From an uncultured Candidatus Saccharibacteria bacterium (GTDB lineage Bacteria > Patescibacteriota > Andersenbacteria > UBA10190): a stretch of DNA of 64,000 bases. The position numbers and the translations under genes are program-made. The DNA is taken from the NCBI GenBank assembly GCA_964359735.1, contig CAYHTZ010000005.1, positions 3,882 to 67,881 of the forward strand, given 5' to 3'. Below the pieces are notes generated by a model. The model ran no database searches, was not told where the DNA came from, and saw only the letters and a list, made by a program, of their open reading frames with translations. Below, piece after piece: positions 1,384 through 51,068 of this stretch (position 1 is its first letter; every line of letters begins with the position of its first letter).

Positions 1384-2897
1384 TAGATTTTCAGTTTGAA
1401 CTTGACCTCCGGGAATTACGCCAGAGGATATGGCAAGTTATTCCTGGCTTGCTCTCTTGGACCACGCTCATTGGGCTAACCGTGCTGGCTTTTTGGTTGC
1501 CGTTTTGGATTGCCATTTTTGTCATTGTCTATGATGTCTATATTTTGATTCGCGCTGTCTACATGTCTATTCACCTGGTGTATGCGTACAACAAACTGAA
1601 GCGCTCCTCGAGCACGCCCTGGCGGAAAAAACTGGAAGATCTGCCAACCCAGGAGGTAGATTGGCGCAATGTTCATCATTTTATTGTCTTGCCCACCTAC
1701 GATGAGGAGATGGAAGTCCTCCGGGGGTCCATACGAGCGCTCGCGGGGAGCGACTTCCCCTTATCTCAGATGCATGTGGTAGTGGGGTTTGAAGAGCGGA
1801 GTGGTGAGGACGCGCGCTCCCGGGCCGCCGCCTTGCATGAAGAATTCGACCATGTCTTCGGAACATTCATGACCACTTTTCACCCGGACGGTTCACCCGG
1901 AGAGCGGCGCGTGAAGAGTGCCAATGCCACCTGGGCTCTGCGCCGGCTGGAAGAGAAGACAGCGCCTCTGGACATTCCGGTGCGCCATATTTTGGTGAGT
2001 AACTTTGACAGCGATACGGTTGTTCACGGTAATTATTTCTCGTACCTGACACATGTTTTTATCACGCACCCTGACCGCTACCATGTGAGCTACCAGCCGA
2101 TTCCTCTCTACAATAATAATCTCTGGGATGCGCCTGCATTTTCGCGCGTGATTGCCACCGGCTCCACATTTTGGCAGCTGATTGAGTCGACTCGTCCCGA
2201 ACGTCTCGTTACCTTCTCCAGCCACTCCATGACCTTACAAGCCTTGCATGATGTTGGATATTGGCAGCGTGATATTGTCTCCGAGGACTCGCGCATCTTC
2301 TGGCAGTGCCTTTTGCGTTACAACGATCGTTACCGTACCGAGCCTCTCTACACTACCGTCTCCATGGATGCGGCGCTGACTCCCACGCTGCCTCGGACGC
2401 TCGTGAGCCAATACCGCCAACAACGGCGGTGGGCCTGGGGAATTGAGAATTTTCCGTATTTAGTCGAAGGTTTCATCAGTAACAAGAGCATCCCCTGGCG
2501 CCGCAAGGCGATGTATCTCTTCCGAACGTTGGAAGGGCACTACTCCTGGGCTACGGCGCCTATTATTGTGGCGGGCTTAGGGTGGCTGCCCATTCTTTTT
2601 GGTGGACCGGAATTTCATACCACCGTATTGTCCTACAGTTTGCCGTTTATCACGCGCACTCTTATGACCGCGGCTATGTTTGGGTTGGTGATTTCAGCGA
2701 GCATCGCCTTCATGTTGCTCCCCCAGAAGCCTGAACGTGTGAGGCCGTGGCGGTATGGCGGTATGGTGCTACAGTGGGCGCTGGTACCTGTGATGGCCAC
2801 TGTGCTTTCTGCTTTTCCGGCACTGGACGCTGAAACCCGCTTGATGCTCGGCCGGGACCTTAACTTTCACGTCATGCAAAAAACGCGCCGTGTTTGA
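1311..2897 (+). CDS. processive family-2 glycosyltransferase (cellulose/chitin/NodC-like synthase), membrane-embedded
   Basis: N-terminal TM helices; central GT-A region with acidic motifs (YDEE, SDTVVH); hallmark Q-Q-R-R-W (QxxRW) motif; C-terminal multi-TM region. Start codon is uncertain because it overlaps the upstream small ORF. Confidence 0.7.
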   Translation: MDSTAHYSNHFDFIIHHSVATQSLVDFQFELDLRELRQRIWQVIPGLLSWTTLIGLTVLAFWLPFWIAIFVIVYDVYILIRAVYMSIHLVYAYNKLKRSSSTPWRKKLEDLPTQEVDWRNVHHFIVLPTYDEEMEVLRGSIRALAGSDFPLSQMHVVVGFEERSGEDARSRAAALHEEFDHVFGTFMTTFHPDGSPGERRVKSANATWALRRLEEKTAPLDIPVRHILVSNFDSDTVVHGNYFSYLTHVFITHPDRYHVSYQPIPLYNNNLWDAPAFSRVIATGSTFWQLIESTRPERLVTFSSHSMTLQALHDVGYWQRDIVSEDSRIFWQCLLRYNDRYRTEPLYTTVSMDAALTPTLPRTLVSQYRQQRRWAWGIENFPYLVEGFISNKSIPWRRKAMYLFRTLEGHYSWATAPIIVAGLGWLPILFGGPEFHTTVLSYSLPFITRTLMTAAMFGLVISASIAFMLLPQKPERVRPWRYGGMVLQWALVPVMATVLSAFPALDAETRLMLGRDLNFHVMQKTRRV

Positions 2898-3858
2898 CCT
2901 GCGTCTCCTCTCCGCCTCTCATTTCATATTTCTGTTACTAAGTTTCGCAGTGGGCTTCGCAGTCTTGCTGCGCTGGCACACAAAATTTGCCGGCATTATT
3001 CCCGCCACCGTGGCAACGATCCTGAGCGTTGTATTCTTGGGAAATACTATTTTAAGCGTCGGGCTGCTCTTGGCCTACGCGGTCATTGTGATAGTTGGCC
3101 GGGCTGACGAAAAAGAACCGCTTTCCCCGGCTGCTCAACTTTTCTGGCAGTTACTCGTGAGCGTCATCCTGGTGGTGTGCGGTTGGAATATTCCGTATGT
3201 GAGCAACCCTCTGGGATCCGGGGTGATTGAGCTCGGCGCCTTAAGTTTCCCCCTGACCGTTGCCTGGATCATGCTCATGATGAATGCTATGAACTGGCTC
3301 GATGGCGTCGATGGCTTGGCTGCCTTAGTTGGGAGCATTGGCTTCATCACGTTAGCAGCCGTGAGCGCTTTACCAGCCACGCAAGACACAGCTACTCTCG
3401 GCTTGGCGCTCGTGGGCGCTGGGGCATTCGCAGGTTTCTTTTTACACAATGCTCCGCCGGCTCGCTTTTATTTGGGTACCGTGGGCAGCTGGTTTTTGGG
3501 AGCTTTCTTAGCACTGACGGCTGCTTTCGGCGGGGGAAAAGTAGCCACCGCTACCCTGGTGTTAGCATTGCCGGTACTCGACGCATTCTTTGTCATCGGC
3601 CAGCGGCTGCTCTCGCGGCAAAAACCGTGGCAAGGAGATAAGAAACATCTTCACTTTCGCCTCGCCTCGCTCGGGTGGAAAGTGCCGCACATTGTTCTCG
3701 CCTCAGGGGTTGTATCGGCCACCTTAGGAGTAATCGCCGTGACCGCCCAAACGAGGGAGAAGCTCTGGGTGCTCGGTATAGTTGCTTTGTTTCTCTTACT
3801 CACTATACTGAGCCTGTTATATCTAACCTATGCGGGCCGGAAAACTGCTCATCGCTAG
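2890..3858 (+). CDS. MraY/WecA-family polyprenyl-phosphate N-acetylhexosamine-1-phosphate transferase (GT4 family)
   Basis: Polytopic membrane protein carrying the family signature NAMNWLDGVDGLAA. 8-nt overlap with the upstream GT2 gene suggests co-translation as a glycan-synthesis pair. Confidence 0.7.
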   Translation: MFDLRLLSASHFIFLLLSFAVGFAVLLRWHTKFAGIIPATVATILSVVFLGNTILSVGLLLAYAVIVIVGRADEKEPLSPAAQLFWQLLVSVILVVCGWNIPYVSNPLGSGVIELGALSFPLTVAWIMLMMNAMNWLDGVDGLAALVGSIGFITLAAVSALPATQDTATLGLALVGAGAFAGFFLHNAPPARFYLGTVGSWFLGAFLALTAAFGGGKVATATLVLALPVLDAFFVIGQRLLSRQKPWQGDKKHLHFRLASLGWKVPHIVLASGVVSATLGVIAVTAQTREKLWVLGIVALFLLLTILSLLYLTYAGRKTAHR

Positions 3859-4393
3859 TTTGACAGGGGTTCTGATTATTGTGGGAGGAATATTGCTGAT
3901 CCTGAGAACCCCCTCTAGCTCCCCCTTGTCAGGGGGAGAGATTTCTTCTTCTCCTTTACCCTCCCTTGATAAGGGGAGGCTGGGAGGGGTTTCTGGAGAA
4001 ACCGTCTGCCCTGATTTCCAGGAAGGGGAAGTCACAGTGGGGGAGGTAGAACTTACCGTATCGCTAGCTAATACCCAGGCGGAGAAGACCAAAGGCCTCT
4101 CGGGCTGCAGCGAACTGCCTGAAAAAGCCGGCATGCTGTTTCCCTATAAACCCGCCAAAACCGTGACCTTTTGGATGAAAAATATGGTTATGCCCATCGA
4201 CATCGTCTGGATCCACGAAGGCCGGGTAATTGGGATCGAGCCCAATATTCCTGCTCCGACACCGGGTGTCCCCGAGAAAGAGCTGCCTCAATACGCCTCT
4301 CCGGGAAGCGTAGATGCTGTTCTCGAAATCAAAGCCGGAGGTGCTGAGGAATACGGCATTGTACAAGGCACTGAAATTTCTTGGAATAATTGA
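3830..4393 (+). CDS. DUF192 (COG1430) family protein with N-terminal signal-anchor; carries an in-frame palindromic repeat insertion
   Basis: N-terminal TM (LIASLTGVLIIVGGILLIL). C-terminal region matches DUF192 (MLFPYKPAKTVTFWMKNMVMPIDIVWI). Residues ~25-55 (SSSPLSGGEISSSPLPSLDKGRLGGVSG) are encoded by repeat copy A. Confidence 0.6.
   Translation: MRAGKLLIASLTGVLIIVGGILLILRTPSSSPLSGGEISSSPLPSLDKGRLGGVSGETVCPDFQEGEVTVGEVELTVSLANTQAEKTKGLSGCSELPEKAGMLFPYKPAKTVTFWMKNMVMPIDIVWIHEGRVIGIEPNIPAPTPGVPEKELPQYASPGSVDAVLEIKAGGAEEYGIVQGTEISWNN
3906..3993 (+). repeat. MITE/RPE-like palindromic repeat, copy A (orientation as copy D), in-frame inside CDS
   Basis: gaaccccct...cccccttgtcaggggga...ccctcccttgataaggggagg...gggaggggtttc. 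Two internal hairpins and terminal inverted repeats (GAAACCCC / GGGGTTTC) shared with copies at 40964, 58185 and 62403. Confidence 0.8.
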
Positions 4394-4447
4394 CAATCAA
4401 TTTGAAATCCTCTACACATTACGCATTACTCATCACGCGTTACTTTT

Positions 4448-4765
4448 ATGAAATTGGCCGTTATTAAAACAGGTGGCAAGCAGTACCTCGTGGGGGAGGG
4501 AACAAAAGTGAAGGTGGAAAAGCTCTCTCAGAAGGAGGGCAAAGCCGTCGCCTTTCCCGATGTACTCATGACGGTCACGGACAAGGCCGTAACTTTGGGC
4601 GAACCTGATGTAGATGCCGCCAAGGTAGAAGGCAAAGTTGTGCGCCACGGTCGCCGCGAGAAGGTCTTTGGCGTCAAAATGAAAGCCAAGAAACGCGAAC
4701 GCAAATACTTCGGTCACAAGCAGTGGTTCACTGAGGTTGAAATTACGAAAATTACTACTCGTTAA
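4448..4765 (+). CDS. rplU: 50S ribosomal protein L21
   Basis: MKLAVIKTGGKQYLVGEG... is a typical L21 N-terminus; length 105 aa. Confidence 0.9.
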   Translation: MKLAVIKTGGKQYLVGEGTKVKVEKLSQKEGKAVAFPDVLMTVTDKAVTLGEPDVDAAKVEGKVVRHGRREKVFGVKMKAKKRERKYFGHKQWFTEVEITKITTR

Positions 4766-5379
4766 TCGCGAGCAGTTTCCAGAACTTTCCGGCCCTCAAA
4801 CGCGGCGCCAAGGGTGAGAGCATCAGCGAATTCAATATCGCCTCCAGTAGGCAGCCCTCTAGCGAGCCGACTCACGGTGATGCCTTTATTCGGCAAGTGC
4901 TTCAGAATGTGCCGCGCCGTCGCCTCGCCTTCTAAATTTTGATCCAGCGCAATGATCAATTCTTCCAGAGAAGGCGCCGTGAGCCGGCGGGTTAGCTCTT
5001 CCAACGTTAGTTGCTCCGGCCCGATACCCTCCAGCGGGGAAAGCCCACCCCCCAGGACATGGTACAAGCCATGGTAGATATTCGTTTTCTCAATCGCTTC
5101 TACATCCAGCGGGTCTTCCACCACGCACAGCCGCCTCATATCCCGCGTGGCATCGCCACATATGGTACAGAGCTCCTTCTCCGCTAAGTTGAAGCACTGC
5201 TTACAAATGCGGACGTTCAGATGCAGGTTCTTGAGCGTTTGCGCAAATCGGTTTACCACCACAGATGGTTGCCGCAGGAGATGAATAGACAGGCGCTGCG
5301 CTGTTTTAGGGCCGATTCCGGGCAGCCGCCGGAGTTCCTCGCTTAAATCCCGCACCGCTTTAGGCAATGTGGAAGGCAT
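4762..5379 (-). CDS. recR: recombination protein RecR
   Basis: N-terminal helix-hairpin-helix LPGIGPKTAQRL; C4 zinc finger CKQC...CTIC; Toprim region; ~200 aa. Confidence 0.9.
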   Translation of the reverse strand: MPSTLPKAVRDLSEELRRLPGIGPKTAQRLSIHLLRQPSVVVNRFAQTLKNLHLNVRICKQCFNLAEKELCTICGDATRDMRRLCVVEDPLDVEAIEKTNIYHGLYHVLGGGLSPLEGIGPEQLTLEELTRRLTAPSLEELIIALDQNLEGEATARHILKHLPNKGITVSRLARGLPTGGDIEFADALTLGAAFEGRKVLETARD

Positions 5380-5446
5380 AAAGCCAGTCTAGCTGACTCC
5401 CCGGTGAGTGTCACCAGTAGGTGACTCTCCCGGGGTGTTAGTGGGT

Positions 5447-6859
5447 TTAAGCAGCAACTGTTTCCTCCGCCGGAATCTGTGCGTCGCTGTAGAACTCCTC
5501 TGGCTCCGCGAATGTGACCTGGCTGGTATGGAAGCGCAGGCTGACATCCCCCGTGGGTCCATTGCGATGCTTTTCAATCAGAAGATCTAAGTCTACCGCG
5601 GCCGATGCTTCTTCACCATTCCCCGGCTGGCGGTGGAGAAACATGACGATATCGGCGTCTTGTTCGATACTTCCGCTCTCACGCAAATCAGAAAGCTTAG
5701 GCCGCTGATCGACTCTCATCTCAATCGAGCGGTTAAGCTGAGAAAGCGCGATGATCGGCACATTCAGCTCAATAGCCAGCTTCTTGAGACTGCGGGAGAT
5801 ATCCGATACTTCCTGTACTCGGTTATCTTGATACCGGCTCGATTCCATGAGCTGCAAATAATCAATAACCAGTAATCCCAATCCAAATTCGGCTTGCAGC
5901 CGCCGCGCCATCGTGCGCATACCCATCACGTTGTTGGAAGCGTGATCATCGATGTAAATAGGGAGTTGGCTGAGTTCTCCCATCGCTTGTCCTAAACGGG
6001 AGAAGTCATCGAATTCCTCTGCTCCTGATTCCAACCGCCCAGTCCTAAGCTTCCAAAGATCGACATGGGCGTGAGCAGCTAAGAGCCGGTCTACCAGCTG
6101 GTCGCGCGACATTTCCAGGCTGAAAATCCCCACCGGCGTACCCGCACTCGCGGCGTGCCTCGCAAAATCGAGAGCCAATGTGCTTTTACCCACGCTCGGG
6201 CGTGCTGCCAATACAATCAAATCAGACTTCTGCCACCCGGCGAGCTTGAGATCCAGCTGCTTGAAGCCTGTGGGCACCCCGCGCAGGGCTGATTCACCCT
6301 TCTGCAACTTGTCGATACGGGCAAAGGCGTCCTCCAATGCTTCAGAGAGCCGGGTAAACTTTTGGTGCTTGTAATCCTTCGATACGGAAAACAGCGTCTG
6401 CTCTGCGCTATCTAACGTAGTTTGTACGTCATCCGCCTCAGTAAACCCCATTTCGGTTATATCGGCCGCGGCCGATATAAGCCGGCGCCGCGTCGCTGTG
6501 CCTTGCACGATCCGTGCGTAGTGGACCACGTGTCCGGCCGTAGGCACCACTGTGGCTAAGTGGGTGACAGCCACTTCTCCTCCCACTTCTTCAAGCTCCC
6601 CGCGCTCTTTCAGGCGGTGAATCACCGACAGCACGTCGATCGGCTCGCCCGAGTTATACAATTCCACCATCGCGGCATAGATAGTTTGGTGACGCGTCTT
6701 ATAAAAATCTTCGGCGCCCAAAAAATCGGCAATTTTTACGATGGCATTCTTGTCTACCATAAGGCTGCCCAGCACAGATTCTTCCGCCTCGTAGCTATGC
6801 GGGGGAATACGCAAGCCTTCGGACATTTCTTTCATTTTGGACATACGGCCTCGTCTCAT
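5447..6859 (-). CDS. dnaB: replicative DNA helicase DnaB
   Basis: N-terminal PPHSYEAEESVLGSLM; Walker A GARPSVGKST; LLVIDYLQLM motif. True start may be the ATG for MSKMKEM about 15 nt downstream of the called start. Confidence 0.9.
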   Translation of the reverse strand: MRRGRMSKMKEMSEGLRIPPHSYEAEESVLGSLMVDKNAIVKIADFLGAEDFYKTRHQTIYAAMVELYNSGEPIDVLSVIHRLKERGELEEVGGEVAVTHLATVVPTAGHVVHYARIVQGTATRRRLISAAADITEMGFTEADDVQTTLDSAEQTLFSVSKDYKHQKFTRLSEALEDAFARIDKLQKGESALRGVPTGFKQLDLKLAGWQKSDLIVLAARPSVGKSTLALDFARHAASAGTPVGIFSLEMSRDQLVDRLLAAHAHVDLWKLRTGRLESGAEEFDDFSRLGQAMGELSQLPIYIDDHASNNVMGMRTMARRLQAEFGLGLLVIDYLQLMESSRYQDNRVQEVSDISRSLKKLAIELNVPIIALSQLNRSIEMRVDQRPKLSDLRESGSIEQDADIVMFLHRQPGNGEEASAAVDLDLLIEKHRNGPTGDVSLRFHTSQVTFAEPEEFYSDAQIPAEETVAA

Positions 6860-23969: not shown

Positions 23970-24293
23970 ATGTCCAAGAAGAAGCAACCTATTGACTTTA
24001 AGGCTCCAGCTACAAAGGGAGATGTGGAAGAGCTAGCCTTGCTAACTGATAAGAATTTTCGAAGAGTCGAACGCAATATGGCGACCAAACGAGATATTGC
24101 ACGACTTGAGAAAAAGAAAGAGCAATACAAGCAAGATATTATTAGTGCATTTAAGACCTCCACTGAGGAACAGAAACATGATCTCGAGGCTGCCCACCAG
24201 GATCAGCTTGATATAGTTGCCGGCAAAAAAGATGCTCCGCTGCAATGGAAATCCATCCCTCGCCGCGCTCGGCAAAGCTGCTGGTATGGCTAG
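23970..24293 (+). CDS. hypothetical small charged/coiled-coil protein
   Basis: 107-aa ORF 18 nt after the pyrG stop; no recognisable motif. Confidence 0.35.
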   Translation: MSKKKQPIDFKAPATKGDVEELALLTDKNFRRVERNMATKRDIARLEKKKEQYKQDIISAFKTSTEEQKHDLEAAHQDQLDIVAGKKDAPLQWKSIPRRARQSCWYG

Positions 24294-37411: not shown

Positions 37412-37717
37412 ATGGCTGAAAAGAAACAGTCCAACGATTTCCGTGACCCTACTCCGGCTACCCATGGGGATCTGAACATTTGGGGCGGGAAGATTCAGGA
37501 AGATATTCAAGAGATTCGTGGCGAATTGGCCATGAAGCCGAATAAGGAAGATTTAGAAAAGTTTGCTAAGAAGATCACGGATCACTTCGATAAGCATATC
37601 GAAGCGTTCGTCGAAAATCGTGCTTCACAGCTACTTGGGGTAAAGCATGACGAAATCCGCGAAATTCAACGCAAGGTTAAAAACCACGAACAGCGGATTA
37701 CTGTTTTAGAGCGATAA
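37412..37717 (+). CDS. hypothetical small soluble protein
   Basis: 101-aa charged ORF. Confidence 0.35.
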   Translation: MAEKKQSNDFRDPTPATHGDLNIWGGKIQEDIQEIRGELAMKPNKEDLEKFAKKITDHFDKHIEAFVENRASQLLGVKHDEIREIQRKVKNHEQRITVLER

Positions 37718-44460: not shown

Positions 44461-44533
44461 GTCCCTATAGCTCAGCGGATAGAGCGCTGCCCTCCGAAGG
44501 CAGAGGCCGCAGGTTCGATTCCTGCTGGGGACA
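44461..44533 (+). tRNA. tRNA-Arg (anticodon CCG)
   Basis: GTCCCTATAGCTCAGCGGATAGAGCGCTGCCCTCCGAAGGCAGAGGCCGCAGGTTCGATTCCTGCTGGGGACA; anticodon loop CTCCGAA. Confidence 0.85.
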
Positions 44534-44539
44534 CAAAAT

Positions 44540-45442
44540 ATGGCCACCCAAGCTGAAATATCACGGACGTACGACTGGATCGACGAAATATTCCGATTGA
44601 GCATGGGTGAGCATGGCGACTTCACGTGTGCTTTTTACGATGGCGATTACTCTAAAACGCTGGAAAAAGCTCAAGCAGATAAACACGAATACATACTAAA
44701 CGGCATTCGCTTTCACGCCGGGCTGCGAGTATTGGACATTGGGTCGGGCTGGGGCCCGATGCTGAGAGCGGTGGAGAGTAAGGCAGGTGAGGCAGTTGGC
44801 CTGACCCTATCCCCCGCGCAGGCAAGGTGGTGCCTCAAAAGGGGGCTAAAAGTTCTTTTGCAGGATTATAAAACCACTGATCCTCAGAAACTGGGTATGT
44901 TTGATGGAGTTGTTTCCGTGGGTGCCTTTGAACATTTTTGTTCCATCTCAGAATTTCTGGCGGGAAAGCAGGAGCAGATCTACCAACAATTTTTTCAGTT
45001 CTGTGCCTCGGTTTTGCCACCGGGAGGCAGGCTATACCTGCAAACCATGACCTGGGGGAAGGCAGTCCCCGACCCAGGATTAATTGAGCGAGAACACCCC
45101 GCCGGCAGTGATGAGTTTCATTTGAAACTCGCCACTCATTTTTACCCCGGCTCCTGGCTTCCTTCTGGATTAGATCAAATGAAGAAATGTGGCGAACCAA
45201 GCTTTGATTTTATTTCAAGTAATAATGGAAGGCTCGATTATATCAAAACCCTGACAGAGTGGGGAAAAAGAGCTAACAAATTTAGTTTCAAGCTCCTGGC
45301 AGCTAAGGTGAAACTGTTGCCGAGGTATCTAGCCGATAAGGAGTTTAGAACTCAGCTCAGGTTTGTTTTTAACGGCTCGCAATCTGAGATTTTCAAGCGA
45401 AACCTTTTCAGCCACGAACGAATGATCTTCGAGAAGAGATAG
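44540..45442 (+). CDS. cyclopropane-fatty-acyl-phospholipid synthase family SAM-dependent methyltransferase
   Basis: VLDIGSGWGPML (motif I of the CFA-synthase/mycolic-acid cyclopropane synthase family); N-terminal ...CAFYDGDYSKTLEKAQADKHEYIL pattern. Starts 7 nt after tRNA-Arg. Confidence 0.7.
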   Translation: MATQAEISRTYDWIDEIFRLSMGEHGDFTCAFYDGDYSKTLEKAQADKHEYILNGIRFHAGLRVLDIGSGWGPMLRAVESKAGEAVGLTLSPAQARWCLKRGLKVLLQDYKTTDPQKLGMFDGVVSVGAFEHFCSISEFLAGKQEQIYQQFFQFCASVLPPGGRLYLQTMTWGKAVPDPGLIEREHPAGSDEFHLKLATHFYPGSWLPSGLDQMKKCGEPSFDFISSNNGRLDYIKTLTEWGKRANKFSFKLLAAKVKLLPRYLADKEFRTQLRFVFNGSQSEIFKRNLFSHERMIFEKR

Positions 45443-45443
45443 T

Positions 45444-45773
45444 TCAGAGGAGTTCACGTTGTTCGACATCTAGATGATTTTGAATGTCAAGAAGTAGTTG
45501 GATATATTTGGCCGCTGTTCGATTTCGAATCCCCTCAATTCTTATCGGAGTCATTACACCTTCGGGTAACGATTTGGCCGTTTTCTCAATAATTGAAACT
45601 AGTTTCTTAAAATCCTTCTTGTATTTTTCCGGTACGTAAGGCTCGTGAAGTTGAAATAGTATCTCTGGAGCTGCACTTGCCAGTCGTCTATTCGCATTTC
45701 CCTCGTGAGTAGCGATGCGGTAATTGATACCAGAGAGCTTTGAAAAAAAGTAATTCTTCATCGCCAAGTCCAT
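45444..45773 (-). CDS. hypothetical small protein
   Basis: The ORF track's 144-aa version overlaps tRNA-Gln. Trimmed to the ATG (MDLAMKNY) downstream of the tRNA, giving 109 aa. Confidence 0.35.
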   Translation of the reverse strand: MDLAMKNYFFSKLSGINYRIATHEGNANRRLASAAPEILFQLHEPYVPEKYKKDFKKLVSIIEKTAKSLPEGVMTPIRIEGIRNRTAAKYIQLLLDIQNHLDVEQRELL

Positions 45774-45787
45774 TGGTTCTCTAAATG

Positions 45788-45858
45788 TTCCGGGACTTGG
45801 ATTCGAACCAAGATTAGCAGATTCAGAGTCTGCTGTCCTGCCATTAGACGATCCCGGA
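45788..45858 (-). tRNA. tRNA-Gln (anticodon CTG)
   Basis: Reverse complement TCCGGGATCGTCTAATGGCAGGACAGCAGACTCTGAATCTGCTAATCTTGGTTCGAATCCAAGTCCCGGAA. Acceptor stem TCCGGGA/TCCCGGA, T-arm CTTGG-TTCGAAT-CCAAG, anticodon loop CTCTGAA. Confidence 0.75.
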
Positions 45859-45930
45859 GTGTATCGAAGGTATACCAAACATTCATGTGATTCTGCAAAT
45901 GGAAGGAGCCTGCTATGATGACTTTCAGAT

Positions 45931-46869
45931 ATGCAAGGTCTTGTAAATGAAATTCGGGAAATGCCGGCTCGCGCTGAAGAATGTTACCGGCAGAATCATA
46001 CTCTTACTTTACCCACTGCAGTTCCCTACCTGGGCATGGGATCCTCATATTTTGCACCTCTGACTCTCTCCTTTTGTGGCAAGAAAATGTTCCCTCAGCT
46101 TGCCTCGGAATACTACTACTACCTTTCCTCTGTGCAAAAACCACTCGGAGTACTCATTTCGCAATCTGGTGAAAGTTCTGAGACCATTTGGAATCTAGAG
46201 AAATTTAAGAGAGTAGTCACGATTGTAAATGAAAAGAATTCTGCATTAGGCCAGGCGCGTAATGCAGAGCAAGTAATTGAAATTTTGGCTGGCCCGGAAC
46301 AATTTTACTCCTCCACCAAAACATATCTCAACACTTTAGTGACATTATACTGCGGGCTCAAACTTGATCCTGGGTCTGCCCTGAAGGTTCTTTCTCGAGA
46401 GTTCCAAAATCTAGAATCTGCTGGCAAGCAGGCTGCAAGCGAAGTCCATCACTATCTAACTCGCCATCAAATTCGGGGAGTATGTATGATCGGTAGCGGA
46501 CCCAACTTGGCAACCGCAAGAGAAGGCGCCCTCATTTTGAGTGAAACTACGAAATGGGCCTGGGGAGGGATGTCAGTGGCAGAGTATGATCATGGCCCAA
46601 AGGAAACAGCCAATCAAACTATTGTTATTACCTTAAATGGCAAGGGAAAGGATCAGAGTCGAATCGAGGCCTTAAAGCAAACTCTTGCGGCAAAGAGCGA
46701 CGCGCTGATGGTGGAGCTTGTTGAAACCGAATTGCCCGAAGAATTAACTCCGTTAACTCTTTTCACACAAGTTTGTTTCTTGATGAATTATCTAGCTGAT
46801 GCTCTCAATGTCAACGGAAGTTTCACAATAGGTGACAAGATCACCAGAGTTCCAGATTCAGCTAAGTAG
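45931..46869 (+). CDS. SIS-domain sugar phosphate isomerase/aminotransferase-like protein (AgaS/GlmS C-terminal-like, no glutaminase domain)
   Basis: Two SIS repeats (LGMGSSYF...; LISQSGESSET...; MIGSGPN...) without the N-terminal Ntn amidotransferase domain. Confidence 0.65.
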   Translation: MQGLVNEIREMPARAEECYRQNHTLTLPTAVPYLGMGSSYFAPLTLSFCGKKMFPQLASEYYYYLSSVQKPLGVLISQSGESSETIWNLEKFKRVVTIVNEKNSALGQARNAEQVIEILAGPEQFYSSTKTYLNTLVTLYCGLKLDPGSALKVLSREFQNLESAGKQAASEVHHYLTRHQIRGVCMIGSGPNLATAREGALILSETTKWAWGGMSVAEYDHGPKETANQTIVITLNGKGKDQSRIEALKQTLAAKSDALMVELVETELPEELTPLTLFTQVCFLMNYLADALNVNGSFTIGDKITRVPDSAK

Positions 46870-46883
46870 TCTTCCTGGCCAGT

Positions 46884-48509
46884 TTAACGGCTAATCAGAG
46901 TCTCAAAGAGAACTTTACCACCTTCTTTACGCAGGCGCACGAGCTTAGCGGTGGAAGTGGGTACGGCATCTGTCTGGTCGAAGATGAAGTTTCCCAGGCC
47001 GGTGAAAATAGGGCGGTTTTTGTAGATGAACATGTCCCCCATCACATGGCTGTGGCTTACAAGCACAGCATCCGCGCCGGCATCAATAAAACTCTGGTAA
47101 AACTCTTTCTCTTCTTTTGAAGTCAAAGTTTGGTACTCTACCCCCGCGTGGATATAGGCAATTCTTAGGAGGTTAGGATCAGCATTCCTAAGGTCTTCAA
47201 TGGCTCTCTCGTACTCTTCTCGCAAGTTTACTGCCGCTTGCTGTGGTACCGGGTTTGTGACACGCGTCAGCGCCACAATGAAGTACTTTGAGTCCTGGTA
47301 TGGCGACGTACTAATTGCTCCCTCTCCGGCTTCTTCGATAAGCGCCTTCGTTTCCGCATACCCTGCCTTTCCCTTATCCAACATGTGGTTGTTTTGCACG
47401 CCCCAATGAGTGGCGAAGTCCCGAATGTCTGACCATAAGTCTTGGGGGTTACAGAATATGAATGGGTTAGGCGCACTCATACAACTTGGCGATAATGGCC
47501 CCTCCAGGTTCACTACGCGTAGCCCCTCCCCCGCCCAGAACTTTTGAATATCGCCCGACAAAACCGGTACTTGCTTCGTCCGAGTTAACGTCACATCCCC
47601 CGCAAGCGCAATATCCTCTGGACCCAGCGCTTCGTTCGCGTAAAAAACTAACGCAAAGTGGCTCGTGGTCTCTGGAACAGTCGTGTCATTCAAAAGACGA
47701 GCCGAGTTCGTGTGGAGAAGTACCGAAGGATTATAGAAGTCTTGCGCCTCTGCCAGCGATGCCAAGAGCCACAGGCACCGGGGACAATCGCTTTGGGCAG
47801 GATTATCCAGGGCTTTCAAGCCGTCCAGATCTTTCGCAAAAATTGTTTGAGCTGTTTCCTCATCTTTTTTATCTGCCTCGCTGATGGTGAGGTAGTGGGA
47901 AAAGTCGCTGCTTATGACGAGGTCCGTCTCGTCATCCAAAGCTTCTGCAAAAAGCTTCAAGATTGCTTCCTCATCGGCACTCTCCCACGGGTGTTTCTGA
48001 GAAAACACGATTGGCACCACGGTCGTTCCCGGCAAATAGTGCGCAATGTATGGGAGTACCGCTCTGATCCCATGCTCCTTTTTAAAAAGGTCGGGCGCGG
48101 CGGTGACGAGCGACGCCGTGCCTAAATTCAGACGCAGTGGCTCGCCCTGTACGTTCCCGAGCAGAGTTTCGAATGTTCCGGAAGTGGTACAAAGAGGCGT
48201 AGGGCAGCCCTCAAAGTGGTCAGGCGAAAGCAGTAAGATCCGCTGCGGGTCATTGGGCACGAGCACCTTAACCCCCGCCGCCATGGCCTCGGTGGACACG
48301 ACGTGGTGTGGTACCACAGCTGCACGTATATGATACGGAGAAGGTTGAGTCGCTTGGTCAGCTGCATAGATGCCCTTCAAGTATTCATGAGGACTCTCGC
48401 CGGCAGGCAGCGAATATACATAGTCGGCCTCTCTTTCTCTCTGGAGCCACACCACCGCTGCGGCAGCTGCCGCTAAGAGGAGCAAGACAGTAACAACAGT
48501 CCGATTCAC
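46884..48509 (-). CDS. fusion protein: N-terminal Memo-like (AmmeMemoRadiSam system protein B) domain + C-terminal CapA/PgsA-type metallophosphatase domain
   Basis: Memo motifs AVVPHHVVS, LLLSPDHF and LVISSDFSHY in the N-terminal half. PGA_cap-like C-terminal half (IALAGDVTL, VVNLEGP, WGVQNNHMLD, YIHAGVEY, LVSHSHVMGD). Confidence 0.55.
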   Translation of the reverse strand: MNRTVVTVLLLLAAAAAAVVWLQREREADYVYSLPAGESPHEYLKGIYAADQATQPSPYHIRAAVVPHHVVSTEAMAAGVKVLVPNDPQRILLLSPDHFEGCPTPLCTTSGTFETLLGNVQGEPLRLNLGTASLVTAAPDLFKKEHGIRAVLPYIAHYLPGTTVVPIVFSQKHPWESADEEAILKLFAEALDDETDLVISSDFSHYLTISEADKKDEETAQTIFAKDLDGLKALDNPAQSDCPRCLWLLASLAEAQDFYNPSVLLHTNSARLLNDTTVPETTSHFALVFYANEALGPEDIALAGDVTLTRTKQVPVLSGDIQKFWAGEGLRVVNLEGPLSPSCMSAPNPFIFCNPQDLWSDIRDFATHWGVQNNHMLDKGKAGYAETKALIEEAGEGAISTSPYQDSKYFIVALTRVTNPVPQQAAVNLREEYERAIEDLRNADPNLLRIAYIHAGVEYQTLTSKEEKEFYQSFIDAGADAVLVSHSHVMGDMFIYKNRPIFTGLGNFIFDQTDAVPTSTAKLVRLRKEGGKVLFETLISR

Positions 48510-48518
48510 GTCAAATTT

Positions 48519-51068
48519 CTACTTTCCTCGGAGGAGCGATGTATACCAGCTGGGCAGCACAGGCCAGCTACCTTTCGGCGTGTACTGGAAGGCATCATAG
48601 TCATCGCCGCCGACGTAGAAGTTTTTCTGCCACTCCTCATCCGTGAGCCTGGATCCACCGAGAAGCTGTGTGAATTCGTAGTGGGAGTACGTGAACCCTG
48701 TCGTAAGCCGCGCTCCATTGGCATCTTTTACCGCCACAAAGATGACGCGCGGCACACCTGTGCCCTCGTAAAGAATGCGCCGCGGGTTAGCGGAGTCCCC
48801 TCCCGTATGAACGTCCGCCACCAGTGCGGCTCGCTTGTCCTTGGCGGGTAACACGACTCCTTCCACAGGGTCAGGCAGCGACTGCTCCATCAGGTTAACC
48901 ATCTCCCATCTGAGTTTTTCCCACTCGCTTTCCCCTTCAATGCTGTATGATACGCACGTTTTGCTGGGGTCCTCAGGGTCAGGGTCGCGGTGCTCCACGA
49001 CTTGCTCCGTAAGTTGCGAGTTACTCAGTTCCTTACCCGTGTAATCGCGCACCAGCTCTAGCAGCGGAATGTAAGCAGTCCGCATTCTGTCTAGGTTATT
49101 GAGTTCCAGCCCCTGCGCTTCGAGCCCCGCGGCCGTCTTGCGGGCTAAGTAGTACAAGCGATCGTACGCGACAGGCTGAGGTTCGATATAGGCTTTCGGG
49201 GGCTCTGGAACTTTACGGGGGTCGCACTCATCCGGCCCGCCCCCGCCGAGTTCAGCGAAGGATTGTTTGGCGTACAGCAGCGTAGCGTGGCGTAGTTCCG
49301 TCCAAAAGCCTGACGCGGTCATGAGCGTCTTGGCGTCCCAAAGAAGCGATTGCATAAACTGCGGCAGCTTGGTGCGGTTCCCCTGGAACCACTCAAATAG
49401 CCCTTGGATGGTCCAAAGCCCCGTCCCGTGCGCCGTACTTTTCCAGTAGTCTTCATCTAAAGTTTCCATTTCCTGTTTGAGTTCAGTTAAAGCTTGGGTG
49501 ATCGCTTGTGAGTTATTGGGCGAGTAGAAATCGAGGGTAGGAATCTGGCTTTCGGCGTACTTCGAGCCTAAAAGAGACATAACCTGCAATGATGACGCCA
49601 TCGGCGGCAACTTTTGCGTGTACCCGGGGCGTGGGGCCTCATCGCCTTGGGTCAGGCGCCCAGTCCAGTAAGAATCAACAATGAACTTCCCGCTAAAGAA
49701 ACGCATCCCTTTTGTGGCTGCCACAGCGTCCTCTGTTTGTACCTCTCCTACGGTGGGGTACGCGGCGGCCAAGTTCTTGATCTTGGGCTCTTTCGCGGAC
49801 ATGAGATACTCTATCGCGGCGCCTCTTTCCCCTCGGCCCACTCTCTGCGCTTCTTGGTAATCGTTCGGAGTTAAATCATCACTCTCCCCTACCAAAAATG
49901 AGATAGTCGCATCCAGGCGGTCATACGCTTGCTTGTCTTCCGGGAAGACCGTGAACAGGTCGCTGATAGCAAAGGCATAATCGGACAGCGCCTCGCTTTT
50001 CACAAAGAATGGCAACTGGTTAAACCACATCATGCCGCGGAAGTACTGCCGGCGCAGGGAGCTGCTCGTGTAATGGCTGCGCGGGGTGAATTGGGTGAAG
50101 TCCACGCTGTATTCTATCCCGGCATCCTGCGCGTACTGGGTGTATTCGTCCTTGAAAACAGCCGGCATATCCGGCCCCTCGGTTGCATAAATTTTCTGCA
50201 AGTCCGCTAAAATGGCCGCCTCGCTGGCACTGCTTAGTTTTAGCTCTTTCACAAATTCGGCTACGTTACTATACGTATCTATCTCCGCATCTTGCTTGGC
50301 ATGTTCGCCTGCCAGCTGGTTTGGGTCAGCGAGCGCTCCGGCTTCATCAAAGTAGTCATCGCTGGTAAGAGGTTGAGCCACCGTGGAGAAAATAGCGTAG
50401 GGGACGGCGAAATAGTCTCGTACCTTTGTCCAAACGATTTTTTTCTCTGCTTCCTGTTCTGCCGCAGCTCGTTTTTCTGCTTCCCAATAAAATTTCTCAC
50501 TCAGCGCTTTGATAGCTGGGTAAAACACTTCGTTCTCCGCTTCTTTCAAAAGTTCGGTTAAGAGAATGGTGTAATGGTTCAAGAATACGTCCGCCGAGAA
50601 GAATATAGCATTCTCCGCTTTGCGTTCTTTGTAGTCCGCAGGGCCGCGGATAGCGTTATAGAGATCCGTAAATTCGCGGTTTTTATCTGCCAGTACTGGT
50701 TGTTTGGGGCGAATGGAGGTGTCGAGAAGATTCTTCACCACAAATTTGTGCTGGGCGAGCAAGCTCCTCTCCTCCGGTGTAAAGGTAAACCCATACGCGC
50801 TTTCAACTGCGGCCAGGTTCCCCACTTCCTCCAGCAGAAAATCTTGGGGAAGATCCGGATGCAAAGATACCTTGAGCTCGTCAAACTCCACTGAGGCAAC
50901 CTGCTTTTCCGCCCGTTCCTTTTGCGAGGGTAAACCGTATTTGGTGAGGCCCAAACGTTCAAACCACCCTTGCCGTGCGCCGACCGCAATGACAACCACT
51001 GCGATCAAGACGAATACTGCCCACCATGCTCCTTGGTTACCTTTACCTGCACCTGGTTCAGCTTCCAT
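48519..51068 (-). CDS. large (849 aa) membrane-anchored extracytoplasmic protein of unknown function
   Basis: Single N-terminal TM then a long, well-composed ORF with no low-complexity segments. No family recognised from the sequence alone. Confidence 0.5.
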   Translation of the reverse strand: MEAEPGAGKGNQGAWWAVFVLIAVVVIAVGARQGWFERLGLTKYGLPSQKERAEKQVASVEFDELKVSLHPDLPQDFLLEEVGNLAAVESAYGFTFTPEERSLLAQHKFVVKNLLDTSIRPKQPVLADKNREFTDLYNAIRGPADYKERKAENAIFFSADVFLNHYTILLTELLKEAENEVFYPAIKALSEKFYWEAEKRAAAEQEAEKKIVWTKVRDYFAVPYAIFSTVAQPLTSDDYFDEAGALADPNQLAGEHAKQDAEIDTYSNVAEFVKELKLSSASEAAILADLQKIYATEGPDMPAVFKDEYTQYAQDAGIEYSVDFTQFTPRSHYTSSSLRRQYFRGMMWFNQLPFFVKSEALSDYAFAISDLFTVFPEDKQAYDRLDATISFLVGESDDLTPNDYQEAQRVGRGERGAAIEYLMSAKEPKIKNLAAAYPTVGEVQTEDAVAATKGMRFFSGKFIVDSYWTGRLTQGDEAPRPGYTQKLPPMASSLQVMSLLGSKYAESQIPTLDFYSPNNSQAITQALTELKQEMETLDEDYWKSTAHGTGLWTIQGLFEWFQGNRTKLPQFMQSLLWDAKTLMTASGFWTELRHATLLYAKQSFAELGGGGPDECDPRKVPEPPKAYIEPQPVAYDRLYYLARKTAAGLEAQGLELNNLDRMRTAYIPLLELVRDYTGKELSNSQLTEQVVEHRDPDPEDPSKTCVSYSIEGESEWEKLRWEMVNLMEQSLPDPVEGVVLPAKDKRAALVADVHTGGDSANPRRILYEGTGVPRVIFVAVKDANGARLTTGFTYSHYEFTQLLGGSRLTDEEWQKNFYVGGDDYDAFQYTPKGSWPVLPSWYTSLLRGK

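Follow-up and report, generated by a model that had tools for sequence, protein, structure and literature searches.

A CFA-synthase-family methyltransferase gene and a small open reading frame between two tRNA genes of a Patescibacteria genome

Do two closely spaced tRNA genes on contig CAYHTZ010000005.1, from an uncultured Candidatus Saccharibacteria bacterium (assembly GCA_964359735.1), mark the ends of an integrated genetic element? The window analysed here, 64,000 nucleotides of that contig (positions 3,882 to 67,881) from a compact genome of the candidate phyla radiation (CPR; Patescibacteria) with 52.5% GC, encodes tRNA-Arg(CCG) at 44461-44534 on the + strand and tRNA-Gln(CTG) at 45787-45858 on the - strand. 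The bracket between them holds exactly two open reading frames (ORFs) in convergent orientation: the gene of a 300-aa S-adenosylmethionine (SAM)-dependent methyltransferase of the CMAS/cyclopropane-fatty-acid (CFA)-synthase family (44540-45442, + strand, identified by the Pfam CMAS domain) and a small ORF of 109 aa (45444-45773, - strand; 105 aa with a start at 45761), characterised through its homologues and predicted fold. Contigs from 0.1-µm-filtered groundwater of the Hainich well H51 carry identical copies of the methyltransferase. A sequence-only reading had proposed an islet integrated at the tRNA genes with horizontally acquired cargo. As posed, the tRNA-integrated islet does not hold up and matters little; the layout of the locus is nothing unusual for a compact genome and yields two modest leads, the clade of the methyltransferase and the family of the small ORF.

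The best explanation as a whole, to which somewhat better than even confidence is attached, combines an incidental bracket, an old lipid methyltransferase and a recent orphan derived from a restriction-modification (RM) operon. Two native tRNA genes of a compact CPR genome would each be followed by one gene on the same strand, and the convergent gene pair thus formed would lie at a lineage-specific variable spot. The methyltransferase would belong, as a solitary gene, to a distinct Glu-Gln-Tyr clade within the CMAS/CFA-synthase family and would move a methyl group from SAM onto a cis double bond in the acyl chain of a lipid, which the cell probably scavenges from a host; its bicarbonate-binding His being replaced by Gln, it may yield a methyl-branched, methylene or hydroxylated chain instead of a cyclopropane ring. 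This clade would have spread horizontally long ago, the copy in the window having since ameliorated to a host-like composition, and the small ORF would be a more recent arrival, an orphaned copy of a helical protein of RM operons. Nothing shows that the two genes arrived together as a mobile island.

The tRNA bracket as a possible integration site

The analysis gave no positive sign of an element targeted to a tRNA gene. Pfam detected no integrase or recombinase domain in the two ORFs of the bracket or in the flanking genes. General repeat finding gave no partial tRNA direct repeat (attL/attR) within 42-49 kb, the sign of integration that the sequence-only reading had pointed to, and both tRNA genes, tiled over the whole window, matched elsewhere only as 14- to 22-mers with 1-4 mismatches located more than 14 kb away. 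Neither protein family was found in IMG/VR, save for one 24% giant-virus match to the methyltransferase query, and the small ORF was not found in phage and plasmid collections.

Composition gives a divided answer. Relative to a baseline of 60 window genes (mean GC 0.526 ± 0.034; mean GC at third codon positions, GC3, 0.565 ± 0.056), the methyltransferase gene is unremarkable (GC z -1.3, GC3 z -0.8, codon log-likelihood z -0.5), the small ORF has the lowest GC and GC3 of the 60 genes (GC z -3.6, GC3 z -3.7, codon log-likelihood z -1.1), and the gene of a stand-alone SIS-domain protein beyond tRNA-Gln (45931-46869, + strand, 312 aa, Pfam SIS 5e-9) is the second most GC-poor (GC z -2.2, GC3 z -2.6, codon log-likelihood z -1.2). 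The composition profile, per-gene z-scores and dinucleotide distance define a low-GC patch at 45.2-46.9 kb (45200-46900, no strand; GC 0.40-0.47 versus 0.525 for the window) that spans the 3' end of the methyltransferase gene, the small ORF, tRNA-Gln and the SIS gene; the dinucleotide signature at approximately 44.8-47.2 kb is in the top 4-10% of deviation. Because the patch runs across tRNA-Gln into the SIS gene, the tRNA genes are not its borders, and deviant composition is not coextensive with the bracket. The suggestion of horizontally acquired cargo is therefore upheld for the small ORF, deviant in composition and with relatives in RM/defence islets, but recent acquisition of the methyltransferase gene finds no support in its host-like GC3 and codon usage.

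Relatives were compared through a DUF3160 gene followed by a 541-aa Memo+PGA_cap fusion (46884-51068), a gene pair conserved across this Patescibacteria lineage (L172-L176). In the closest relatives that could be reached, Memo/PGA_cap is 51-55% identical to that of the window, and the DUF3160 protein beside it 55-67%. These relatives keep the pair, but directly downstream they differ from the window and from each other: L172 has MoxR/VWA genes with HEPN/nucleotidyltransferase and Csx3-like genes, L175 and L176 have GroES/GroEL, and L173 has unknown genes. The SIS gene, both tRNA genes, the methyltransferase gene and the small ORF are all missing from that spot in the relatives examined (L172-L176). 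Thus, synteny breaks at the block, which is not conserved; no tRNA-methyltransferase-tRNA arrangement is shared by these relatives, and on this count the islet idea stands unrefuted. A scan of GTDB genomes with GlmS was uninformative on synteny, the matches listed being at most 52% identical and from unrelated phyla.

The layout of the bracket itself is as the sequence-only reading had described it, two tRNA genes flanking just two genes: ARAGORN detected both tRNAs, and Rfam RF00005 (gathering score 29 bits) scored tRNA-Arg at 71.7 bits (44461-44533) and tRNA-Gln at 63.9 bits (45788-45858). The 3' end of tRNA-Arg, in which CCA is not encoded, faces the methyltransferase gene, and that of tRNA-Gln faces the small ORF. 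The methyltransferase ATG lies 5-6 nt past the 3' end of tRNA-Arg, a start codon backed by M1 and A2, both invariant in 34 homologues, and the stop codons of the two genes are 1 nt apart. The small ORF had been described as running into the tRNA gene, which is true of a mechanical TTG-extended form (to 45878) and not of other starts: all homologues begin at MKNYF (= 45761) and the 109-aa form starts at 45773, leaving 14-26 nt before tRNA-Gln, and hence the small ORF does not overlap it. With four tRNA genes in the window (ARAGORN), a simple uniform-placement estimate of the chance that two of them fall within 1.4 kb of each other is p ~0.2, and the statistical weight of the bracket is low.

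The only purine-rich stretch resembling a Shine-Dalgarno sequence ahead of the methyltransferase gene (GGGGA, 8 nt upstream) is a piece of the tRNA-Arg acceptor stem (44530-44542). If tRNA-Arg and the methyltransferase gene were co-transcribed, processing of the tRNA 3' end would leave a nearly leaderless methyltransferase mRNA.

Two points weigh against an incidental bracket. The 3' ends of both tRNA genes point inward at a synteny break, the geometry expected of tRNA-targeted insertion, and no true empty site was found among the relatives, which at 51-55% flanking-gene identity are too distant to serve as one. The first would suit a decayed remnant of one or two islets targeted to the 3' ends of tRNA-Arg and/or tRNA-Gln, from which the integrase and att sites were lost through genome streamlining. 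As in known tRNA-targeted genomic islands, the cargo lies downstream of tRNA 3' ends, composition is partly deviant, and the site varies among relatives; one homologue of the small ORF belongs to an islet that separates mreC from an mreD-like gene, and L172 carries its HEPN/nucleotidyltransferase and Csx3-like genes at the very spot where synteny breaks. Such islands differ from the bracket in having an integrase and att direct repeats, and in a composition boundary that matches the tRNA gene, whereas here the low-GC patch passes through tRNA-Gln to the SIS gene and the methyltransferase gene is host-like; the viral, phage and plasmid collections likewise speak against a mobile origin. A decayed islet is thus judged unlikely, although it is the strongest of the competing explanations.

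Homologues of the methyltransferase occur beside tRNA genes in other contigs, and this also enters the case for a decayed islet. In L088, a contig from the same aquifer sample, a 65%-identical homologue begins 53 nt downstream of tRNA-Asp (1513-1589), the start of which is overlapped by the end of a LAGLIDADG homing-endonuclease-like gene (839-1522). In L142 (3000-8500), a homologue lies within an array of co-oriented tRNA genes (Pro, Pro, Arg, Gly, His, Arg(TCT), methyltransferase, Lys, Glu), with tRNA-Arg(TCT) 20 nt ahead of it and tRNA-Lys 48 nt behind. The family as a whole is not enriched beside tRNA genes, which counts against that case: a tRNA gene lies within 60 nt of the methyltransferase gene in 4.8% of 83 related loci versus 2.7% for other genes there (p = 0.24), and within 110 nt in 6.0% versus 5.6%. 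Adjacency to tRNA genes as a property of the family was dropped after this control.

The methyltransferase and its clade

The assignment of the methyltransferase to the CFA-synthase family, made from its VLDIGSGWG motif in the sequence-only reading, is confirmed by Pfam CMAS (PF02353, 1e-35, 123.8 bits versus a cut-off of 27, residues 4-246). The motif occupies residues 63-71 and corresponds to the class I SAM-binding glycine-rich motif VLDxGxGxG; D66, G68, G70 and G72 are invariant in 34 homologues. The protein falls far under all NCBIfam equivalog cut-offs (mycolic_MTase NF040660, 97.1 versus 390 bits; Cfa NF008686, 82.8 versus 400 bits), aligns only to positions 118-330 of the 383 in the NF008686 profile, and has no N-terminal lipid-binding domain. 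Its best PDB profile matches are PcaA, Aquifex CFAS, MmaA4, UmaA and CmaA1 (E 1e-31 to 1e-30), and plant alkaloid N-methyltransferases, which share the CMAS fold, match at 1e-11. A PADLOC match to 'mad2' (2e-16) was disregarded, as it does not extend beyond the generic SAM-binding region (residues 47-169).

The catalytic bicarbonate of cyclopropane synthases is bound by a Glu, a His and a Tyr, which in E. coli are E239, H266 and Y317 (PMC11387697). Residue-level alignment to CmaA1 pairs E131 of the methyltransferase with E140, Q168 with H167 and Y234 with Y232 (H266 of the E. coli enzyme being equated by the family numbering of PMC11387697, not by residue-by-residue alignment), so that the Glu-His-Tyr triad of cyclopropane synthases proper (Cfa, CmaA1/2, PcaA) is altered by Q168 in the place of His. 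The Glu and the Tyr never vary among 85 members of the clade, of which 81 have Gln and 4 have His at position 168. At the CmaA1 H167 position, Gln is likewise present in the PDB chain named hydroxymycolate synthase MmaA4. The product of MmaA4 is methyl-branched and hydroxylated, not a ring. Given the His-to-Gln change, a cyclopropane product is uncertain for the methyltransferase of the window.

The likeness to characterised enzymes is close in the catalytic domain and incomplete elsewhere. The mycolic-acid methyltransferases and cyclopropane synthases (CmaA1, PcaA, MmaA4/Hma, UmaA; 1KPH, 1L1E, 2FK8, 7L9U) provide the best PDB matches and share GAFEHF, the Glu and the Tyr, but identity is only about 25-30%, the mycolic_MTase score is far under its cut-off, the host, being a CPR bacterium, does not produce mycolic acids, and Gln is the rule in the clade rather than the exception. 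The phospholipid CFA synthases (E. coli, P. aeruginosa and Aquifex Cfa; 6BQC, 7QOS) align over the catalytic domain (residues 9-247 to 119-331 of 6BQC) and have the same presumed substrate, the cis double bonds of acyl chains, but differ in the His266 of the bicarbonate triad (PMC11387697), which is Gln here, and in score (83 versus 400 bits). According to PMC11387697, the roles of small CFAS-like proteins (280-320 aa) are unknown. A CFA-type SAM enzyme that forms a methyl-branched olefin and not a ring is UfaM, the cis-vaccenate 11-methyltransferase of the furan fatty-acid pathway (PMC7380195). By description, UfaM resembles the clade as a CFA-synthase-type enzyme acting together with a desaturase, but its partner UfaD is NAD/FAD-dependent and phytoene-desaturase-like (PMC7380195), whereas the partner in the clade is a di-iron membrane desaturase (PF00487), and no UfaO-like gene was seen.

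The desaturase is the recurrent neighbour of the clade. In 19 of 81 metagenomic loci a PF00487 membrane fatty-acid desaturase gene (1e-36) directly adjoins the methyltransferase gene, 18 of the 19 being co-oriented with a gap of at most 92 nt or an overlap, in either gene order, and all 19 desaturase-linked methyltransferases have Gln168. The co-oriented pairs are in L104, L105, L106, L108, L110, L112, L114-L116, L119, L120, L122, L123, L125, L133, L138, L146 and L148. The third histidine box of the L104 desaturase is QIEHH, the form of front-end desaturases. A limited literature search found no characterised counterpart of the pair. No desaturase gene was found in the 64-kb window, and on contigs of Saccharibacteria, Paceibacterota and Nanoarchaeota the methyltransferase gene stands alone amid housekeeping genes (RF-1/PrmC and L31; LysA; NUDIX and Lactamase_B, of the metallo-beta-lactamase fold).

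The clade is large and patchily distributed. It gave more than 6,500 matches, the best 120 of which are all at least 50% identical to the methyltransferase of the window, and the latter is approximately equidistant (51-57%) from proteins labelled Paceibacterota, Saccharibacteria, Nanoarchaeota, Pacearchaeota, Limisphaerales, Opitutaceae and Ktedonobacteraceae; members are scattered over CPR bacteria, DPANN archaea, Verrucomicrobiota and Chloroflexota, on contigs of GC 0.25 to 0.73. The five closest relatives (65-69%) sit in unrelated contexts, and no synteny with the closest homologues was found. This distribution and the range of contig GC have the pattern of an old, horizontally spread gene. 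CFA-synthase-like genes in DPANN have been remarked on previously (commentary PMC11481508), and the presence of such a gene is not new in itself.

The best-supported and most likely activity of the methyltransferase, predicted from its sequence, would be to methylate, at the expense of SAM, a cis double bond within the chain of an acyl lipid, with indirect backing for acyl-chain methyl transfer from the operonic desaturases of the 19 loci. To our knowledge, CPR bacteria generally cannot make fatty acids, and the substrate here would on that account be a scavenged lipid, probably taken from the host since no desaturase is encoded nearby. More tentatively, a possible generalisation is that the Glu-Gln-Tyr clade consists of lipid olefin methyltransferases that act with a front-end-type membrane desaturase in free-living bacteria and alone in CPR bacteria and DPANN archaea, where they would remodel host-derived unsaturated lipids to non-cyclopropane products (methyl-branched, methylene or hydroxy-methyl), and, separately, that the small ORF represents a new accessory component of RM systems. 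A CFA-synthase-like clade with Gln in the catalytic base-binding site, widespread in ultra-small symbionts unable to make fatty acids and operonic with desaturases elsewhere, would thus be a testable candidate for the editing of scavenged membrane lipids by episymbionts.

The case for a lipid is not one-sided. Substrate and product are inferred, no member of the Glu-Gln-Tyr clade having been characterised biochemically, and the clade is found on contigs genuinely from DPANN archaea, in whose lipids cis-olefinic acyl chains would not be expected; this occurrence leaves room for a non-lipid substrate. The methyltransferase might accordingly act on a small molecule or on RNA, its position next to a tRNA gene being functional, and the inclusion of plant alkaloid N-methyltransferases in the CMAS fold and the several homologues within 60 nt of tRNA genes would fit such a role. 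Adjacency to tRNA genes is no commoner than for other genes of the same loci, the neighbouring tRNAs are of various identities (Arg, Asp, Ser, Glu, Pro, Lys), Glu and Tyr, which are ligands in the olefin-methylating enzymes, never vary, the mycolic-acid and phospholipid enzymes are much the better PDB matches (1e-31 versus 1e-11 for the N-methyltransferases), and the operonic desaturases of 19 of the 81 loci point to lipids. A non-lipid substrate is therefore considered improbable, more so than a decayed islet, and methylation of an acyl-lipid chain is preferred.

A link to the adjacent SIS and GlmS sugar genes, also suggested by the sequence-only reading, fares worst: that the methyltransferase and the small ORF form a module with GlmS, GNAT and SIS, modifying for example a glycolipid or cell-envelope precursor, is very improbable and already largely refuted, for it is favoured only by physical proximity in the window, whereas no sugar-metabolism neighbour (GlmS, SIS or GNAT) recurs by the methyltransferase gene in the 81 loci or in CPR/DPANN contexts, neither the methyltransferase gene, the small ORF nor the other flanking genes were found in the 80 genomes of the GlmS matches listed, the small ORF and the methyltransferase gene occur together only in the genome of the window among the matches listed, and the genes lie on different strands with tRNA genes in between.

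The small open reading frame

The small ORF belongs to a rare family. Thirteen close homologues (52-64% identity), with the motifs INYRIATHEGNANRRLAS and NRTAAKYIKLLIDI, were found among 5.8 billion proteins, and a profile search of 1.84 billion proteins gave 94 cluster representatives, all stand-alone and of approximately 100 aa. The AlphaFold (AF2) model is a five-helix bundle with a mean pLDDT of 92.9, for which Foldseek found no significant match in the PDB, and searches of Pfam, NCBIfam, PADLOC, PHROGs and PDB sequence profiles likewise gave nothing significant. A weak likeness to HEPN proteins (E about 1, TM 0.44-0.50) was not accepted, the conserved R-x3-H in helix 1 being a misfit to Rx4-6H.

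All three independent homologue contexts that were examined are RM operons on low-GC contigs (0.29-0.38). In L003, a 113-kb low-GC contig, a cassette of approximately 4.3 kb (1964-6297) encodes HTH_17, Fic, an MmeI-type RM enzyme, a 188-aa protein and the homologue; it lies between mreC and an mreD-like gene, which is followed by pbp2, and is evidently an insertion into a conserved operon. In L006 the homologue is downstream of hsdM and the gene of an AriA-like ATPase. In L184-L189, from the same Hainich aquifer (L184 from well H52), it is located between hsdM and hsdS. The immediate neighbours of the homologues are not conserved apart from an N6-adenine methyltransferase gene. The type I RM operon of L184 (851-6732; also L185-L189) has six unannotated ORFs of 99-218 aa between hsdM and hsdS, the homologue included, and a T5orf172/MUG113 nuclease-like gene comes next in L184.

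Accessory ORFs embedded in RM operons are known, for example prrC in the EcoprrI locus and the rlo genes. The homologues resemble these in their position inside or downstream of RM genes (L184, L006, L003), but the small ORF has no sequence or fold match to a known accessory or defence protein, and in the window no RM gene lies close to it: neither RM nor defence genes were found at 42-48.5 kb, and the list of ORF starts covering the whole window shows none. The small ORF thus looks like a recently acquired orphan of an RM-operon family, possibly defence-related. It co-occurs with a CMAS methyltransferase gene only in the genome of the window, among the matches listed, and the two genes are accordingly not a module. 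The family, rare helical proteins of approximately 100 aa that recur in RM operons, is a candidate new RM or defence accessory.

Flanking genes and other observations

The 541-aa Memo+PGA_cap fusion has relatives in Patescibacteria (matches named Peribacteraceae, Parcubacteria and Gracilibacteria), and its 90%-identity cluster includes a protein labelled "Patescibacteria group bacterium". DUF3160 is present twice in L173. The SIS protein (45931-46869) is a double-SIS protein that resembles the isomerase half of GlmS and NagB-II, with scores far under the NCBIfam cut-offs for glmS and NagB-II; its gene lies outside the tRNA bracket, does not adjoin Memo/PGA_cap in relatives, and may be another recent acquisition.

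Elsewhere in the window, two low-GC ORFs of approximately 100 aa without a Pfam match (23970-24293 and 37412-37717) are weakly alike (29% identity over 80 aa, pairwise E 2e-4). Both start with M..KKQ..DF, and they may be paralogues.

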